A stretch of DNA of 52,684 nt, taken from positions 1 to 52,684 of the forward strand of contig CAZAZR010000008.1 in assembly GCA_964489685.1 (NCBI GenBank), read 5' to 3'. This DNA comes from an uncultured Solibacteraceae bacterium (GTDB lineage: Bacteria; Acidobacteriota; Vicinamibacteria; Vicinamibacterales; SCN-69-37). The position numbers and the translations under genes are program-made. The notes under the pieces are model-generated. The model made no database searches. It saw only the letters and a list, made by a program, of their open reading frames with translations, and had not been told where the DNA came from. The stretch's first letter is position 1. Every line of letters begins with the position of its first letter. Positions 3,632 through 52,684 of this stretch are shown one piece after another.

Positions 3632-5521
3632 ATGCCGGCCCTTCGGCTCCCACTCCGACTCGTGCTGCCCACGGGGCTCATCCTGCTGGTCATTGTCCTT
3701 GGCGCACTGCAGTACCGGTGGCTCGGGCAAGTCAGCGAGGCTGAACGCGCGCAGCTTCAGCGGTCGCTGAACCAACGCGCGCAGGAGTTCGCCACGGATT
3801 TCGACAAGGAGATCGGACTGGCATACGCCCTGCTGGGTGCCACCCACACAACGGCCGATGATGGCTTGTGGACCTCGATGGACACGAGATTCGACTCGTG
3901 GAAAAAACAGGCGCCGCATCCAGGCCTCGTCAAAGCGATCTACTTCTGCCGCGTGGGCGTGGCCGAAAAACCGCCGGTGCTCGAACAGCTCGTCGTCGGG
4001 TCGGGCGAGGGGCGGGTGCTGGACTGGCCCGACCATCTCGCGCCTGTGCTTCGAGTGTTTCACCTCGTGCCCGCAAGGCCGGCCAGCCCCCCGGTCACGG
4101 CACGCCTGCTCTCGATCAGCCGCGCGAGCGTCGTCGAAAGCGTGCCGGCGTTGATCATCCCCGTGGTCCAGCCGCCGCAGCGGATCAGCGCCGCCGGCAA
4201 TGTGATGATGGCGATTCAACAGCCGTCGACAGGGGCCATTATCGTGGAACTGGACAAGGACGTGCTTGTGACACGGATCCTGCCCGAACTGGTGGAGCGA
4301 CATTTTCCTGATGGCGACGCGGGCCAGTACCACATCGCAGTCCGGGGCAGCAGCCCGACACCACTCTACGTGCGCAGCACAACGCCCTCCGAAGCCGTGA
4401 CGATGATGAATGCGGATGCGATGGCGTCATTTTTTTCGTCGCCGCACCTCGATCTGACGGCCCAGTCGCGTGGGGCCGCGGCGCTCAGCACCTGGCAATT
4501 CACCACGGCCACCTTCGACCGGCGCGCCGGCGCGGTGACCGAGATGGCGACGCGGATCCTGGCGCCAACTCCCGGCAATCTCGCGATCGTGGTGGGACGC
4601 ACCATGTCGGGTACACGATTGGTGGAGCCGTCGGTCATCTCCACCTTTGGGGGCTGGCACATCGCCTTGCGCCACGGCGCCGGCTCTCTCGACGCCGCCG
4701 TCGCGAAGGCCCGCCAGCGCAACCTGATTGTCAGCTTCAGCATTCTCTCGGTGCTGGCTTTAGGCGTCGGGCTGATCGTGGTCAACGCACGGCGTTCAGA
4801 GAAACTGGCCTCACAGCAGATGGACTTCGTGGCGACGGTGTCGCATGAACTCCGCACGCCGCTCGCGGTCATCCGGTCTGCGGCGCAGAATCTCGCTGCG
4901 GGCGTTGTGGATGATCCTGTCAGGGCCAAGCGGTATGGCGAACTGATCGAGTCGGAAGGACGCCGCCTGACCGACATGGTGGAAGAGGTACTCGAGTTCG
5001 CGGGCCTGTCTGGCCAGCGCCGGGCCCTGGCGCTCAAAGCCGTCGACGTCGTGTCGATGGTGCAGGACGTGGTGGAGTCTTCGTCAGCGCTCATCGCTGC
5101 GGCGCAGGCTCAGGCCGATGTCACCATCGGCCCCGACGTGCCGTTGGTCATGGGCGATGAAGACGCACTGCGCAGGGCCGTCTCGAACCTGCTGACCAAT
5201 GCGCTGAAACACGGCGGCGAGGGCCACTGGGTCGGAATCAACGTCGGACGCCAGGCGGCGAACGGGCGTGAAGAAGTGCACATCGTCGTCTCTGACCGCG
5301 GACGCGGCATCGAGGACGCGGACCTGCCTCACGTCTTTGAACCCTTTTATCGAGGCCGCCACGCGACCAGTCAGCAGATTCAGGGAAACGGTCTGGGCCT
5401 GAGTCTGGTCTCGCGCATCGCCGAATCACACGGCGGCCGGGTGACCGTGGCATCCGTCCCGAAACAGGGCGCCACGTTCACCATTCAATTGCCCGTGGCC
5501 GCCGATCTGGCGGGCGTCTGA
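3632..5521 (+). CDS. Membrane sensor histidine kinase
   Basis: Two TM segments, H-box VSHELRTPL, N-box NLLTNALKH, G-boxes DRGRGI and GNGLGL. Confidence 0.95.
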   Translation: MPALRLPLRLVLPTGLILLVIVLGALQYRWLGQVSEAERAQLQRSLNQRAQEFATDFDKEIGLAYALLGATHTTADDGLWTSMDTRFDSWKKQAPHPGLVKAIYFCRVGVAEKPPVLEQLVVGSGEGRVLDWPDHLAPVLRVFHLVPARPASPPVTARLLSISRASVVESVPALIIPVVQPPQRISAAGNVMMAIQQPSTGAIIVELDKDVLVTRILPELVERHFPDGDAGQYHIAVRGSSPTPLYVRSTTPSEAVTMMNADAMASFFSSPHLDLTAQSRGAAALSTWQFTTATFDRRAGAVTEMATRILAPTPGNLAIVVGRTMSGTRLVEPSVISTFGGWHIALRHGAGSLDAAVAKARQRNLIVSFSILSVLALGVGLIVVNARRSEKLASQQMDFVATVSHELRTPLAVIRSAAQNLAAGVVDDPVRAKRYGELIESEGRRLTDMVEEVLEFAGLSGQRRALALKAVDVVSMVQDVVESSSALIAAAQAQADVTIGPDVPLVMGDEDALRRAVSNLLTNALKHGGEGHWVGINVGRQAANGREEVHIVVSDRGRGIEDADLPHVFEPFYRGRHATSQQIQGNGLGLSLVSRIAESHGGRVTVASVPKQGATFTIQLPVAADLAGV

Positions 5522-48870: not shown

Positions 48871-49245
48871 CTAATACGGAATCCGGACGCCGGAATCATC
48901 CAGGGGAAAGTCCTTCGTGTTGCGCGTGACCAGCAGAGCCGACTCCATCTGAGCCGTGGCCCAGATGATCGCGTCGGGCAGCCGCACGCGTGTACGCCGG
49001 CGAATCTCGACCGCACGCCTCGCCACCTGCCTCGTAATCTCAATCACGCGAAACTCCCGCAGGAAGAGATCGATGACGTCTGCCTCGTCTTCCGTTCGTG
49101 ATCCGATCTGGAGTTCCATCCAGGTGACGATGCTGATGCCGCGACGGGCGTAGCGGGCAAATTCCTGCTGGGCTTCCTCGCGCCCCACCAGATAGTCGAT
49201 CAGGATGTTTGTGTCGAAGACCGCTTCGACGTGTGGACGCGCCAT
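48871..49245 (-). CDS. vapC: VapC PIN-domain toxin
   Basis: FDTNILIDYL, MEL, PDAIIWATA, VTRNTKDF. Confidence 0.92.
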   Translation of the reverse strand: MARPHVEAVFDTNILIDYLVGREEAQQEFARYARRGISIVTWMELQIGSRTEDEADVIDLFLREFRVIEITRQVARRAVEIRRRTRVRLPDAIIWATAQMESALLVTRNTKDFPLDDSGVRIPY

Positions 49246-49247
49246 GC

Positions 49248-49466
49248 CTACGCCCACTCGTTCCGGAGACGTTCCTGCTGGGCCAACGCATCCGCAGCCC
49301 GATCGCGCCAGAGGCCGAACGCCCCGGGGACCTCACCCTGCCGCTGCTCTGCCAGCATCGCCGCTACCGCTCGACGAATGGCCTCGGCCCTGGAGATGCT
49401 CTGGCGTCGGCAATGAGCATCGAGGTCAGTCAATTGATCCTGCGGAAGCTCGATTATCGTGCGCAT
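49248..49466 (-). CDS. vapB: RHH (CopG-like) antitoxin
   Basis: MRTIIEL...ISRAEAIRRAV...AFGLW...LRNEW. Confidence 0.88.
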   Translation of the reverse strand: MRTIIELPQDQLTDLDAHCRRQSISRAEAIRRAVAAMLAEQRQGEVPGAFGLWRDRAADALAQQERLRNEWA

Positions 49467-49499
49467 GATGACGTCATCATAACACATCATCATCATCAT
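49465..49499 (-). promoter_or_regulatory. vapBC promoter/operator
   Basis: Perfect 16-bp palindrome ATGATGACGTCATCAT, extended -10 TGtTATGAT on the minus strand, and a (CAT)5 run. Confidence 0.7.
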
Positions 49500-49523
49500 T
49501 CTTCAAGGCATCCGGGGGCCTTA

Positions 49524-49680
49524 GGGCCTGTCAGGAAACAGGTGACGCATTTGGACCGCCGATCCATCCCGCCTGGCTTTGTTGCTCCTCCCTCAAATAC
49601 GCTGGGTATTCTCGGTCGTCGCGCCTCGGCATGCGGGCGCCTCGACGCTCCAAATGCGTCACTTCTTTCCTGACAGGCCC
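49524..49680. mobile_element. 157-bp MITE with about 32-bp TIRs and TTA target duplication
   Basis: GGGCCTGTCAGGAAACAGGTGACGCATTTGGA ... TCCAAATGCGTCACTTCTTTCCTGACAGGCCC, flanked by TTA at 49521-49523 and 49681-49683. Confidence 0.85.
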
Positions 49681-50115
49681 TTAGATCGGTGTTTCGACCA
49701 GGGCTTTCAATCGCGCAAGATCCGCCTGAAGGCCCGACTGGAGCGGCCCCGTCACCATCGACTCCGGGATGAACGGCATGTCCTTGAGCTCGCCCGTGTT
49801 CTGGACCTGGACCCGAGATCCCGTACCCGATCGCTGGATGCCGATGCGGGCGGTGCCCACAAACGGGCCGTCCACAATCCTGAACGCCAGCACGTGTGGA
49901 AAATGCACGGTCTCCACTTCGGTGGTCCACACCAGCGCCTGCCCCATGAAACGGCCGTGGTGCCGCACCCGCGCACCAGGCGCCAGCGCGGGATCGATCA
50001 CCTCCACCCGCTCCACCGCACTCATCCATTCCGCATACCGCTGGGGGTCGAACATCACGCCCGCGATCGTGGCAGGGGACGCGGCAATATCAATCTCGGC
50101 ACGAACATCAATCAT
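49681..50115 (-). CDS. SRPBCC/polyketide cyclase family protein
   Basis: IDIAASPA...DPQRYAEW...DLARLKALVE. Confidence 0.85.
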   Translation of the reverse strand: MIDVRAEIDIAASPATIAGVMFDPQRYAEWMSAVERVEVIDPALAPGARVRHHGRFMGQALVWTTEVETVHFPHVLAFRIVDGPFVGTARIGIQRSGTGSRVQVQNTGELKDMPFIPESMVTGPLQSGLQADLARLKALVETPI

Positions 50116-50164: not shown

Positions 50165-50236
50165 TTAAGGACCGTGTGCCGTCCCAGCAGGCACAACAGC
50201 AGTTCGCGAGTTTGCCGCGCTGACGTGTCTTGCCAT
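50165..50236 (-). CDS. Putative 23-aa small protein
   Basis: AAAGGAGG RBS (50242-50249) just before the ATG; MARHVSAANSRTAVVPAGTAHGP*. Confidence 0.35.
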   Translation of the reverse strand: MARHVSAANSRTAVVPAGTAHGP

Positions 50237-50393
50237 TCTGTCCTCCTTTGGTCTGCCACAGTGGTAGCAGACTTCGTGAGGCAACGCACTCCCTCGGTCA
50301 CAGAAAGGGCGAGTCAATGCGACCGGCGAAAGTAGTTGACGTTGCGCAGCAGGGAAGTCGCGAAGACTTCTCCCCTATAATCAGCCCTCCAGA

Positions 50394-50456
50394 ATGAGTC
50401 TTCCCTCCGGCACCCGCCTCGGCCCGTACGAAGTGGCCTCCGCCATCGGCGCCGGC
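50394..50456 (+). pseudogene. 5' stub of Ser/Thr protein kinase gene
   Basis: MSLPSGTRLGPYEVASAIGAG breaks off inside the Gly-rich loop; TATAAT at 50376. Confidence 0.8.
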
Positions 50457-50502
50457 GTACCCGATGCGCGAAGGCGGCACGTGATGCGTGCGATAATTGC
50501 GT

Positions 50503-50721
50503 GTGGACGCCGCACAGACTCGCCGAAGCCGTATGCAGGTGCGCGTGTATCCATCGTTGGCCGCACAGGATCGAGACGATGCCGCGTATTGGGCGGCACT
50601 GCCGGTGGACGTTCGGGTCTTGCAGGTGTGGATACTCAGCGAGGCGCAATGGCGCCTCAGTGGCGAGTGGCCCGGTGAATCAGGACTTCCTCGATCTGTT
50701 GCGAGCGTTCGCCGACCATAA
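50503..50721 (+). CDS. Small putative antitoxin partner of nucleotidyltransferase
   Basis: DAAYWAALPVDVRVLQVW motif; extended -10 TGcGATAAT 5 nt before the GTG; overlaps the next gene. Confidence 0.7.
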   Translation: MDAAQTRRSRMQVRVYPSLAAQDRDDAAYWAALPVDVRVLQVWILSEAQWRLSGEWPGESGLPRSVASVRRP

Positions 50722-51121
50722 CGTCCGATATCTGATCGTCGGCGCGTATGCGCTCGGCGTTCACGGGGCGCCGCGCGCCACTGGCGATCTGGATGTGTGG
50801 GTCGACCCGACGCCAGACAACGCGTCCCGTGTGATGAGCGCGCTGGCTCAGTTCGGCGCCCCTCTCACCGAGGTCACTGCGGACGATTTCAGCCGCCCGG
50901 GCATTGTCTTTCAAATGGGACTGCCGCCGTTCCGTGTTGATGTCCTCACCGAACTCTCGGGCCTGACATTTGCGGAGACGTGGCCGAGTCGCACGCAGGC
51001 GCCATTCGGTCCATTGGTCGTGGAGGTCATTGGTCGAGAATCGTTCATTCTGAACAAGCGGGCGACAGGGCGCGCGAAAGACCTCGGCGACATTGAGCGT
51101 CTCGGCGATTCGTCGAAATGA
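50675..51121 (+). CDS. Nucleotidyltransferase-fold protein (DUF6036-like), putative toxin
   Basis: YLIVGAYAL...PRATGDLDVWV, NKRATGRAKDLGD. Confidence 0.85.
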   Translation: MNQDFLDLLRAFADHNVRYLIVGAYALGVHGAPRATGDLDVWVDPTPDNASRVMSALAQFGAPLTEVTADDFSRPGIVFQMGLPPFRVDVLTELSGLTFAETWPSRTQAPFGPLVVEVIGRESFILNKRATGRAKDLGDIERLGDSSK

Positions 51122-51605
51122 GTCTCACCCCAGGCACCCGCCTCGGCCCGTATGAAGTGGTCTCACGCCGTAGCCCAAGGCGAGGATCTGGCGATGACTA
51201 AAAAACGATAGGGCCGTATCAGACAGAGATAAGGCCGAAGACCGGACGGGACGTGATGATCCTGCCCGTGGAGGGCGACGCCAGCCTGGGATGGAAGGCC
51301 GGCACGCCCATCGTCTTCACGGGGACGGCCGCCAACGAGAGGGACACCGCGGTGGTCAGTGACCCCGCTCGAACTCCTGCCGTACACCGCGGGCGACACG
51401 TTCGTGCCGCGCTCGCCGCAGTTCTGGGCGCCGCAAGACGGAGTGGCGCGGCTGGGCTTCGACATCCATCCCGACGGCAAGCGGGTGGTCTTTGGACGCG
51501 GACGATGCTGTGGCCCTTCAGGCGGCGCTCTCCGCGCGAGACAAGGTCGTGTTCTGGTCGGGGTTCTTCGACTACCTGCGGAAGAATGTCGTGACGAAGC
51601 GATGA
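51118..51605 (+). pseudogene. Skeletonised Ser/Thr kinase-TolB-like gene (start plus scattered C-terminal fragments)
   Basis: MSLTPGTRLGPYEVVS, then DVMILPVEGD..GTPIVF, FDIHPDGKR and DKVVFWSGFFDYLRKNVVTKR*. Confidence 0.8.
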
Positions 51606-51633
51606 GCCCTCAGGCGAGGCACCCGCCTCGGTC
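51602..51633 (+). pseudogene. 5' stub of Ser/Thr kinase gene (frameshifted)
   Basis: ATGAGC...GGCACCCGCCTCGG overlapping the previous stop by ATGA. Confidence 0.65.
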
Positions 51634-51662
51634 TTCACGAAAACACGTGCCACACTGATTTT

Positions 51663-51908
51663 GTGGCCGAGACACAGAACATTACACTGGCGCTGCCCAA
51701 GGCGCTGCTCCGCGAAGTGAAGCGCCTCGCGGCCGACAGCGACACGTCTGTCTCGGCCCTGATGGCGCAGGCGCTGGATCAACTCGCGTCGGCAGAACGC
51801 CGCTACACGTCGGCTCGTCGGGGCGCGCTCGTGGCATTGGCCGCGGGAAGGTCGCTCGGCACACAGGGCCGCCGGTCCTGGACGCGCGACAGCCTGCATG
51901 AGCGCTGA
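51663..51908 (+). CDS. RHH-type antitoxin
   Basis: QNITLALP...SVSALMAQAL...WTRDSLHER. Confidence 0.85.
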   Translation: MAETQNITLALPKALLREVKRLAADSDTSVSALMAQALDQLASAERRYTSARRGALVALAAGRSLGTQGRRSWTRDSLHER

Positions 51909-52123
51909 CCCGGAACTCGCGTTTGTCGACGCCAACATCCTCGTGTACGCATTCGATGCCTCGGCTGGCGATCGACATGCGCGCGCACAGCGCCTGATCG
52001 AAGGGCTGTGGAACGACGGGAGTGGCTGCCTGAGCGTCCAGGTCCTTCAGGAGTTCTTTGTCACCGTCACGAAGAAGGTCCCGAAACCGCTGACGATCGC
52101 GGAGGCCGAGACGTCTGTTCGAT
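51898..52123 (+). pseudogene. Truncated PIN-domain toxin
   Basis: FVDANILVYAFD, SVQVLQEFF; breaks after about 75 aa and lacks the C-terminal acidic motifs. Confidence 0.8.
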
Positions 52124-52292
52124 GCCCGCCGCGGTTCCCGCCGGCACGGCCTCCCCCAATGACATCCACCCGGATGGCAAGCGCATAGCACTCGCCGCGG
52201 CCGTCGATCAGGCCGGCGTGGTGCAGGACAAGGTCGTGTTCGTGTTCAACTTCTTCGAGTACGTGAAGAAGACGGTGGCGGGGAAAAAATGA
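52123..52292 (+). pseudogene. 3' end remnant of kinase-TolB-like gene
   Basis: DIHPDGKRIAL...DKVVFVFNFFEYVKKTVAGKK*, paralogous to 51455-51605. Confidence 0.75.
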
Positions 52293-52303
52293 GTCTCACG
52301 CCC
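52289..52303 (+). pseudogene. 5' stub of Ser/Thr kinase gene
   Basis: ATGAGTCTCACGCCC (MSLTP) with ATGA overlap; near-identical to 51118. Confidence 0.55.
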
Positions 52304-52346
52304 TCGTGGCGCGTCAGTCAGGCGAGATGATGCCTTCTGGTCACAA

Positions 52347-52377
52347 TTGACATCATTTTCACTCTACGTCATCATTT
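52347..52377 (+). promoter_or_regulatory. vapBC promoter/operator
   Basis: TTGACA-N17-CATCAT, 6 nt before the ATG; CATCATTT occurs twice. Confidence 0.65.
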
Positions 52378-52381
52378 CTGA

Positions 52382-52609
52382 ATGAGGACAACACTGACGC
52401 TAGACGATGACGTGGCGGAACTGGCGGCGCGCCAGGCCAAGGCACGGGGGCTGTCGTTGGGCAAGGCAATCTCGGACCTGGTGCGTCGGGGGCTCAATGC
52501 GCCCACGCCGTCCACCGACAAGAACGGGCTCGTGGTGTTCCGGTTGCCGTCCGACTCGCCAACGGTCACCACCGAGGACGTGCGCCGGCTTGAAATCGAG
52601 GGAGCGTGA
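52382..52609 (+). CDS. vapB: VapB-like RHH antitoxin
   Basis: MRTTLTLDDDV...SLGKAISDLVRRGL...VTTEDVRRL. Confidence 0.88.
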   Translation: MRTTLTLDDDVAELAARQAKARGLSLGKAISDLVRRGLNAPTPSTDKNGLVVFRLPSDSPTVTTEDVRRLEIEGA

Positions 52610-52684
52610 AGGCGTACCTGCTCGACACCAACGTGCTGATCGCGCTGTTGTGGTCGAGTCATGCCCAGCATGATGCGGCGATGC
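52606..52684 (+). CDS. vapC: VapC PIN toxin (partial)
   Basis: GTG start overlapping the antitoxin stop; MKAYLLDTNVLIALLWSSHAQH. Confidence 0.85.
   Translation, partial: MKAYLLDTNVLIALLWSSHAQHDAAM

Follow-up and report, generated by a model that had tools for sequence, protein, structure and literature searches.

Kinase gene stubs interspersed with retained toxin–antitoxin modules at a contig end of an uncultured Solibacteraceae bacterium

A 52,684-nt stretch of contig CAZAZR010000008.1 (assembly GCA_964489685.1; here called the window) from an uncultured Solibacteraceae bacterium ends in an array in which duplicated kinase genes have been reduced to short stubs, with toxin–antitoxin (TA) modules kept between them. 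Most likely, a tandem array of kinase paralogs took up autonomous TA modules and was then eroded by deletions, with the toxins decaying first. As the kinase genes have been whittled down while the self-contained modules survived, the array points to ordinary decay, not to a new cassette-shuffling machine. A search of titles and abstracts found no description of such a kinase-stub/TA arrangement. The genes, relics and promoter-like elements described in the window all lie on the plus strand.

Read directly, the sequence agrees with an initial annotation in placing four kinase 5′ stubs at 50394, 51118, 51602 and 52289, with ATGA stop/start overlaps at the last three, and in the location of both kinase-type 3′ ends. 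Homologue alignments support the assignment of these stubs and C-terminal ends to relics of Ser/Thr kinase-PD40 (TolB-like) genes. Stub 1 (50394..50456; 21 codons, MSLPSGTRLGPYEVASAIGAG) is 89% identical to the start of a kinase in the relative G018 and is followed by 25 nt of unrelated sequence. Stub 2 (51118..51165) has 16 codons, its ATG overlapping the stop of a nucleotidyltransferase (NTase) gene, and its junction with the next part falls within a shared GGTC(TC). Stub 3 (51602..51645) is frameshifted and recognisable to about 51645; the stub at this position in the relative G001 runs on into a kinase domain. Stub 4 (52289..52302) retains about 5 codons and is 94% identical to 51116–51131. 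The 14-mer GGCACCCGCCTCGG, pointed out at 50409, 51133 and 51618, was confirmed in these three copies against 0.07 expected (0 of 100 shuffles reach three), and the whole 4.3-Mb assembly holds only five copies, three in the stubs and two in other places. Direct repeats pair 50393–50440 with 51117–51164 (88%) and 51540–51606 with 52227–52293 (70%). More stubs exist than the four originally counted, namely a degenerate second-type kinase start at 51194 and three stubs on contig C236. Stub lengths vary (2, about 5, about 10, 16 and 21 codons), and the points at which kinases break off range widely, between codon 2 and about codon 400, with microhomology of 4–6 nt at two junctions, as in simple deletions. 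Three stubs (52289, C236:473 and C236:726) break within about 6 nt of one another although the sequence behind them differs, which counts against plain erosion.

The kinase 3′ remains include a C-terminal pseudogene (51253..51605) in three pieces and three frames, matching a kinase C-terminus of G001 (E 5e-17, 6e-23 and 1e-17) with a 57-residue gap (residues 65–121 missing); the orthologous C-terminus is intact in G001:C196. The last 49 codons of a kinase (52143..52292) are joined out of frame to a PIN relic, 52143–52289 being 61% identical to the last 49 residues of the 926-aa G018 kinase (E 4e-18). None of the window pieces unites a kinase domain and a beta-propeller in one frame, as the full-length paralogs do; they comprise only 5–21 N-terminal or 49–115 C-terminal codons and are thus pseudogene relics of the kinase-PD40 family, not working members. 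Kinase decay is genome-wide: kinase pseudogenes with internal deletions and without TA genes occur at C4:63023-63977, on C53 and on C107. The genome has at least 37 Pkinase matches, and many kinases carry PD40 beta-propeller repeats, a large paralog family that recalls the birth-and-death evolution of expanded Ser/Thr kinases in Acidobacteria, with the expansion described in Solibacter (Challacombe et al. 2011, PMC3174227). The kinase passages of that paper describe neither tandem arrays reduced to stubs nor a link with TA genes.

The first module has its left homology boundary at about 50482–50487, on which four genomes agree within about 5 nt, and starts with a promoter-like TGcGATAAT (50489..50497) that may act as a promoter, judging by its sequence. 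It consists of a small partner ORF (50497..50721, frame A; true start perhaps 50501 or 50533) and an NTase-fold gene for a putative toxin (50675..51121, 148 aa). The partner ORF has a dN/dS of 0.20–0.23 relative to G018 and G005, against 2.9 for the overlapping stub frame, and the NTase one of 0.14. A partner homologue (tblastn) adjoins the NTase in most of 80 loci; profile searches with the partner returned no known family. The structure model of the NTase (pLDDT 84.6, pTM 0.81) is matched by Foldseek to TM1012, LnuA and MenT1 (TMq 0.57–0.66, prob 1.00) and also to ANT(2'')-Ia, which predicts the nucleotidyltransferase fold of MenAT- and AbiE-like TA systems. The modelled likeness to MenAT includes MenT1 itself (TMq 0.65–0.66, 21–23% identity, prob 1.00) and the small upstream partner. 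Unlike MenAT, the partner falls into no known family and the NTase has no significant sequence match: a phmmer search of the PDB gave best E values of 0.49 and 0.61, DUF6036 is matched weakly (16.7 bits, cut-off 23.6), and NCBIfam and PADLOC place the protein in no curated toxin family. Homologues number 3012 at E<=1e-10, and the named ones among the 120 matches listed are all called 'hypothetical protein'. The proposal of a small protein plus NTase as a TA pair thus holds for the predicted fold, while the TA role is putative.

In the second module, which had been described as an RHH plus PIN pair, the ribbon-helix-helix antitoxin (51663..51908) is intact (RHH_1, 23.2 bits, cut-off 20.5), but the PIN toxin (51898..52125) is truncated to about 75 residues and covers only profile positions 2–56 of 120 (21.8 bits, cut-off 23.6). 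The third module, with its left homology boundary at 52345 and a predicted promoter (TTGACA-17-CATCAT, 52347..52375), encodes a VapB-type antitoxin (52382..52609) with weak RHH/DUF6364 matches, 95% identity to its G005 copy and a dN/dS of 0.10. Directly downstream and overlapping it by 4 nt, a VapC (PIN) gene starts at 52606, reaches the window end (52606..52684) and continues to C236:417. The window alone therefore holds an incomplete VapBC pair; with C236 added, the sequence predicts a complete VapC-family PIN toxin (138 aa, read from C236:1-414; TIGR00028, E 8e-30, 103.9 bits, cut-off 73.6). Homology of the VapBC module (87% in G005:C36 and G006:C407) ends at the promoter and the stop codon, with unrelated flanks in both relatives (2/2).

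The array continues past the window on C236, joined to the window end by a 55-nt overlap of 100% identity. In addition to the three further stubs, C236 contains a gutted second NTase module with an interior deletion between two GAATC (86% identical to the first over the compared end), an integron integrase remnant, and an internally deleted kinase of about 45 N-terminal and about 20 C-terminal residues.

In close relatives within the Vicinamibacterales, the kinase-PD40 genes at corresponding positions are longer or full-length and adjoin the same NTase module or HicAB, MNT-HEPN, HigBA or Phd-PIN. TA modules between kinases with ATGA coupling, an arrangement postulated beforehand, are present in G018, G005, G001 and G016. 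The order in G018 is a 926-aa kinase, the NTase module with GAAATGAGTC on both sides, a kinase that breaks off at 211 aa, HicAB and a further kinase; in G005 it is kinase, NTase module, kinase. In G001 the NTase module stands between an 891-aa kinase and a 16-codon stub, and a C-terminal piece of 105 aa comes next; the genome also retains an intact counterpart of 51253–51605, behind which come a kinase domain and then MNT/HEPN. HigBA and Phd-PIN lie between kinases in G016, where the corresponding ATGA-coupled kinase pair has nothing between its members, and at locus L094 of another species a degraded kinase end precedes an NTase module whose toxin is dead and a stub of 22 codons. The NTase module (83–91% identity) stands behind a different kinase in each of G018, G005 and G001 and behind a promoter-bearing stub in this genome, and is always succeeded by the same type of kinase start. 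Its succession by a kinase start in these four genomes fits the proposed tandem TA-then-kinase unit, which is absent in 76 of the 80 species with NTase loci. In three genomes the module begins 1–20 nt past the stop of three different intact kinases; such tight spacing with a shared boundary would not obviously come from random deletions, unless selection trims the intergenic DNA as far as the promoter. The neighbours of the SRPBCC gene left of the array differ in G016, G003 and G017, so that no ancestral locus can be defined from this gene.

We propose that the locus started from kinases arranged head to tail with an ATGA stop/start overlap, as found in relatives. Self-contained TA modules, with a promoter at one end and a stop codon at the other, would then have settled between or inside kinases, an arrangement also observed; as the same modules occur in unrelated contexts of other genomes, they arrive as autonomous units. 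Comparison of the junctions and of the relatives suggests that the kinase bodies were lost in spontaneous deletions, two or more of which occurred at 4–6 nt of microhomology, and that frameshifts broke the remainder, sparing between a few and about 21 initial codons and in some cases the terminal 50–115. Those modules in which the genes remain under purifying selection would have survived this loss and so now lie almost back to back. The modules themselves have eroded toxin first, as seen in the truncated PIN at 51898 beside its intact antitoxin and in the gutted second NTase copy. Whole units of 'module + kinase start' probably multiplied or changed place through general homologous recombination between kinase ends of similar sequence; dedicated recombination machinery is neither needed nor seen.

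The initial annotation had instead suggested a cassette-shuffling, integron-like system with kinase ends as insertion points, and had set out that a lack of TA enrichment beside kinases together with unclustered breakpoints in relatives would indicate ordinary decay. Largely this is what was found. The scattered breakpoints, the microhomology and the TA-free kinase pseudogenes all speak against such a system, as do the NTase loci without kinases (76/80), the unrelated VapBC contexts (2/2) and the lack of attC sites between the modules. PIN genes are not enriched beside kinases in G016 (2/22 at most 1 kb from a kinase frame on the list, with about 0.8 estimated by chance) or G010 (0/10), in a test of low power, as it considered PIN genes only and a partial kinase list (the best 150 of 198 entries, with 40/50 frames of G016 and 18/19 of G010, and with G034 and G007 left out). 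In the present genome, PIN genes stand beside kinase relics only at this locus, with 2 of 23 PIN entries on C236, a count to which neither the PIN relic at 51898 nor the 26 VapC codons at the window end contribute.

In an alternative that we consider rather unlikely, homology-assisted capture, the conserved kinase ends would serve as homology arms once a TA module stood between two kinases, and modules would spread or be duplicated among paralogous or orthologous kinase junctions by general recombination or after DNA uptake; the array would have grown by accretion besides shrinking by deletion. Capture would account for one NTase module standing after different kinases with the same kinase start type following, for the bracketing of the G018 module by GAAATGAGTC, for two NTase-module copies in one array, for the near-confinement of the 14-mer to three stubs, and for the empty kinase pair of G016. 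Each module in the window is, moreover, flanked by direct repeats of kinase 5′ ends of 10 to 63 nt, and because Campbell-type or homology-assisted insertion would give the same flanking repeats, these count against a reading of pure erosion. However, differential deletion in an older, longer array explains all patterns listed for capture too. The stub lengths are unequal, the NTase–kinase link is limited to 4/80 species, and the kinase 3′ relics here and half-length kinases in relatives mean that deletion certainly occurred.

It is improbable that autonomous modules repeatedly land or are exchanged at the kinase-PD40 5′ end, in the stretch of some 22 codons that reaches to the P-loop glycines. 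Were it so, this very position would house both TA cassettes and a conserved palindromic leader element between duplicated kinase starts, and the paralog family would constitute dispersed attachment sites at which cassettes are captured, duplicated and moved without attC. Gene cassettes would thus be assembled via paralog ends in place of dedicated recombination sites.

A dedicated site-specific system, integron-like or other, in which a recognition site in the kinase 5′ end receives TA cassettes is very improbable, also in the variant in which a neighbouring integron-type integrase, or the leader palindrome as a folded recombination site, perhaps takes part. The former is suggested by an integron-integrase remnant of 55 C-terminal residues at C236:3158-3322, 2.1 kb downstream (TIGR02249, E 1.4e-21, aligned to the profile end), and by a second integron-integrase fragment on C246 that adjoins a kinase start with the 14-mer. 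The latter is suggested by a conserved imperfect palindrome, the leader element, which in many genomes coincides exactly with the P-loop codons of kinase starts; stub 1 ends 1–2 nt from the P-loop position at which the element starts elsewhere. Yet the integrase is a broken remnant with a frameshift upstream and scores 77 bits against a TIGR02249 cut-off of 265, below that of a functional integrase. Its attI-like GTTAGGC (C236:3617) is on the downstream side, oriented away from the TA modules, and a genome-wide palindrome scan, which also gave many unrelated palindromic repeats, found one attC-like site, at C236:4337-4420 beyond the relic. An attC site is an imperfect palindrome at the cassette 3′ end with the consensus inverse core RYYYAAC ... 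core GTTRRRY, and, in keeping with the initial annotation, 0 such pairs occur from 48800 to the TA array end, using this simple consensus as a crude substitute for a proper attC model. Breakpoints do not fall at a single site, the modules occur without kinases in other species, and the intact palindrome is absent from this genome (20-nt string, up to 3 mismatches). An assembly artefact from collapsed or chimerically joined kinase repeats in a metagenome bin, suggested by the 300 contigs and the contig break inside vapC, is extremely improbable, since every junction is crossed, with 0 differences, by Logan contigs of runs X8, X9 and X10 from three other samples, the whole stretch and beyond, including the window end and the C236 part, is covered by a 4989-nt contig of X1, and assemblies of other species contain related but different junctions.

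Sedentary chromosomal integron arrays, such as the Vibrio superintegron, carry TA cassettes, and the present locus resembles them in its co-oriented, promoter-bearing TA modules and in an integrase relic with a true attI/attC array within 3 kb. In contrast to them, kinase relics and not attC sites separate the modules, and the integrase remnant lies between these modules and its attI. TA-rich chromosomal spots that undergo acquisition and erosion have been described in Photorhabdus (Belot et al., Mol Biol Evol 2026, PMC13617665); in that study, TA genes cluster in small high-turnover spots, linked loci are streamlined, toxins are pseudogenised first, and the spots are linked to Tn3-type transposases and res-like palindromes. 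The two cases share clustered, unrelated type II TA modules that are autonomous across contexts and lose toxins before antitoxins, and the streamlining of linked genes, whereas here the scaffold is a decayed tandem kinase array whose 5′ and 3′ ends serve as punctuation, and no transposase was seen in the stretch examined. The locus is likely to be a high-turnover, TA-rich spot on the wreck of a tandem Ser/Thr kinase-PD40 array. It would offer a clear, read-supported example outside the Proteobacteria of selfish TA modules outlasting the surrounding genes, with decayed kinase paralogs as datable 'punctuation' from which the order of insertion, deletion and toxin-first decay could be reconstructed across a genus.

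Some 'stubs' derive from a conserved upstream ORF that mimics a kinase start, is accompanied by a hairpin and recurs throughout the order. Annotation of short kinase-like ORFs in Vicinamibacterales accordingly calls for care, as they may be true relics or this upstream ORF. In the window, 51166..51225 comprises a relic of the right arm of the leader element and the degenerate second-type kinase start (ATG at 51194, internal stop), with 92% identity to G005:C338 and 84% to G017:C49. The string scan of this genome gave 2 matches, neither in a kinase context, so that the leader element is not a high-copy repeat here. By eye, a 9-nt match to the leader hairpin of G026, possibly due to chance, is visible within the 25 nt after stub 1. 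Rfam gave no family on the window end and C236 at E<=0.1, and searches with the leader hairpin of four relatives returned nothing at E<=0.5 except one unrelated weak match to a CRISPR repeat.

The array at the right end of the window is newly documented, and the locus that holds it is an eroding, TA-rich spot of a known kind. The four kinase stubs (short 5′ remnants of Ser/Thr kinase genes, at 50394, 51118, 51602 and 52289) and the ATGA overlaps of stop and start codons described in the initial annotation are confirmed in the sequence; the 14-mer attributed to three stubs was found in 3 copies in the window, against 0.07 expected, and in only five across the entire genome. The window is the complete contig C8 of an assembly of 300 contigs (4.3 Mb, 65% G+C), in which 37 Pkinase matches occur among the matches listed; full-length paralogs carry a Pkinase domain and PD40 (TolB-like) repeats. 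Two kinase-type C-termini also lie where they had been placed, and alignments to kinases of two relatives, G018 and G001, bear out their origin. The piece at 52143-52289 aligns to the final 49 residues of a 926-aa G018 kinase (E 4e-18). The piece at 51253-51605 has to be read in three different frames to match the last 196 residues of a G001 kinase, and covers residues 28-64, 122-166 and 164-196 of that stretch. The region has therefore been frameshifted at least twice and has lost 57 residues, and judging from these alignments both pieces are true kinase relics.

All three proposed TA-like pairs are present, except that one toxin is incomplete: in the RHH-PIN pair the antitoxin is intact and the PIN toxin is shortened to ~75 residues. 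The VapBC pair is completed only by adding the next contig, C236. The NTase pair (50497-51121) comprises a small ORF and a 148-aa protein of nucleotidyltransferase fold (predicted structure, pLDDT 84.6), whose model matches TM1012, LnuA and MenT1 in structure comparison; searches of curated families gave it no assignment. Purifying selection acts on those module genes that survive (dN/dS 0.10-0.23), and the frame continuing from stub 1 shows none (dN/dS 2.9). Immediately left of the array, on the minus strand, lies another complete RHH-PIN pair (48871-49499; PIN 59 bits, RHH_1 25 bits), so the TA-rich zone extends beyond the reported array.

The closest records carry the name Vicinamibacterales, and longer forms occur among them. 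In G018, the 926-aa kinase is followed by ATGAGTC plus 16 nt and then the NTase module (83% identity), whose stop overlaps the start of a kinase cut at 211 residues, with HicA-HicB and another kinase start behind it. In G005, a different kinase stops 1 nt ahead of the NTase module, and the following kinase reaches the contig end. G001 has, in order, an 891-aa kinase, the NTase module, a stub of 16 codons, junk and the C-terminal 105 residues of a kinase; on a second contig, its counterpart of window 51253-51605 is intact and ATGA-coupled to a kinase domain, which gives way to an MNT/HEPN pair. G016 has HigB-HigA and Phd-PIN between kinases, and a kinase ending '...VQDKVVF.FNF...' that is ATGA-coupled straight to the next. 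In a further species (L094), a degraded kinase end, the NTase module, its toxin lacking the catalytic region, and a 22-codon stub follow one another. Given these longer forms, the window therefore shows, in its most eroded form, an arrangement found elsewhere with working kinases.

The array continues on C236, whose first 55 nt repeat the window end with 100% identity; a 4989-nt public contig (X1) contains both parts joined. Beyond 52684, where it had been suggested to look for a recombinase or a full kinase, more stubs, an internally deleted kinase and an integron-integrase remnant were found. The VapC stop is followed by a stub of 5 codons joined directly to the ribosome-binding region of a second-type kinase, itself cut down to ~45 N-terminal and ~20 C-terminal residues, a stub with a GTG start, a second NTase-module copy with the NTase interior deleted and, 3′ of it, one more degenerate stub. 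Farther on lie an unrelated opposite-strand gene and a Phd-PIN pair whose PIN is shortened. From C236:3158, an integron integrase survives as its C-terminal 55 residues (TIGR02249, E 1.4e-21), followed by a conserved 300-nt stretch ending in GTTAGGC, a pair of small ORFs resembling cassettes and an attC-like palindrome of textbook form (4337-4420). C236:3158-4460 and C101:13236-14490 of the same genome form two integron platforms, with integrase and cassettes pointing the same way and 87.6% homology from the integrase 3′ end over ~300 nt, up to an attI-like GTTAGGC / GTTGGGC; beyond it the small ORFs differ. The C101 integrase is frameshifted, as against the 55-residue remnant on C236. On another contig of this genome, a short one (C246:1-2596), an integron-type integrase is present as its N-terminal two thirds, and a kinase start 1.2 kb away has the 14-mer of the window stubs.

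The initial annotation had read the array as a candidate cassette-shuffling system. This interpretation is not supported, as breakpoints are scattered, the modules are kinase-independent and no attC-type pairs separate them. The expected clustering of breakpoints did not appear: stubs span 2 (G018), ~5, ~10, 16, 21 and 22 codons, and truncated kinases ~45, 90, 211 and ~400 residues. Where both parents of a junction are visible, the join sits in a short shared string: GGTC(TC) between stub 2 and the right arm of a leader element, and GAATC in the gutted NTase copy on C236. Enrichment of TA genes beside kinases was not borne out either; counting PIN genes only, 2/22 lay within 1 kb in G016 (40 of 50 kinase frames), against ~0.8 by our own estimate of chance, and 0/10 in G010 (18 of 19 frames). 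In the genome of the window, PIN genes adjoin kinase relics at this locus only, with 2/23 PIN entries on C236. Among NTase-encoding loci from different species, a kinase start follows the stop in 4/80, all 4 close relatives. The VapBC module is 87% identical in G005:C36 and G006:C407, with homology confined to the promoter-through-stop stretch and unrelated flanks. On such comparisons, the TA modules are evidently independent of kinases. A core-pair scan found no attC-type pair between modules, in agreement with the earlier remark that attC sites were not visible. Elsewhere in the same genome, kinase-PD40 pseudogenes that have internal deletions or are frameshifted several times lie with no TA genes nearby (C4:63023-63977, C53:16100-17300, C107:950-2530).

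According to a 2026 Photorhabdus study, TA systems cluster in small high-turnover spots, linked loci are streamlined, toxins are pseudogenised first, and TA operons with their own promoters turn up in new contexts (PMC13617665). The present locus is likewise eroding and TA-rich; its scaffold is a decayed tandem kinase array, which is its instructive aspect. In Acidobacteria, the Ser/Thr kinases stand out as a group of paralogs (PMC3174227), and a literature search of titles and abstracts found no description of TA modules punctuated by kinase stubs.

General recombination between paralogs, spreading units of a module plus a kinase start, is a rather unlikely contributor, to which several facts nevertheless lend themselves: three different intact kinases have the NTase module right behind their stop codon, the left boundary of the module falls within ~5 nt in four genomes, kinase-start repeats bracket every module, and three stubs break within ~6 nt of one another with differing sequence behind. 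A dedicated recombination system seems highly improbable; these boundary, bracketing and breakpoint facts do not require one. An assembly artefact is ruled out, since every junction is bridged with zero differences by independently assembled contigs of three other samples, X8 (50212-50729, 50715-51810, 51826-52451), X9 (50320-50954, 50948-52032) and X10 (50320-51051, 51330-52061), which share one habitat type and may stem from one campaign. The segment 50212-50349, single-copy in this genome and without an Rfam match, has a depth of ~50 in public contigs versus 4-9 in its flanks, with other sequence joined at both ends; it may be a conserved segment common to other organisms of the samples.

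Two 'stubs' (51118-51225 and C236:473-530) derive by decay from a conserved leader structure that belongs to one kinase subfamily and is known from G016 (L024:8630-8790), G005 (L015) and G017 (L018). It consists of an upstream ORF of ~47 codons, with its first ~22 codons mimicking the N-terminus of a kinase, an imperfect palindrome starting exactly after the P-loop glycines, and an overlap (ATGA/GTGA) of the ORF stop with the real kinase start, whose N-terminus differs. A 166-nt G016 query matched 23/121 genomes of the order, spanning both stub and hairpin at about a dozen loci of several families. The hairpin matched no Rfam family; RNAalifold predicted 20 pairs, 2 with compensatory changes. 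Differences in the stub part (0.35, 0.14 and 0.54 per codon position) follow the pattern of translated sequence, and gene conversion from paralogs could alternatively keep stubs similar to kinase starts. A MITE-like element at 49520-49684, bounded by terminal inverted repeats of 43 nt that are 88% complementary, has 97-98% identical copies on C31 and C24 and a shortened copy just upstream of a kinase on C115, and its ends match sequences in many genera of the order.
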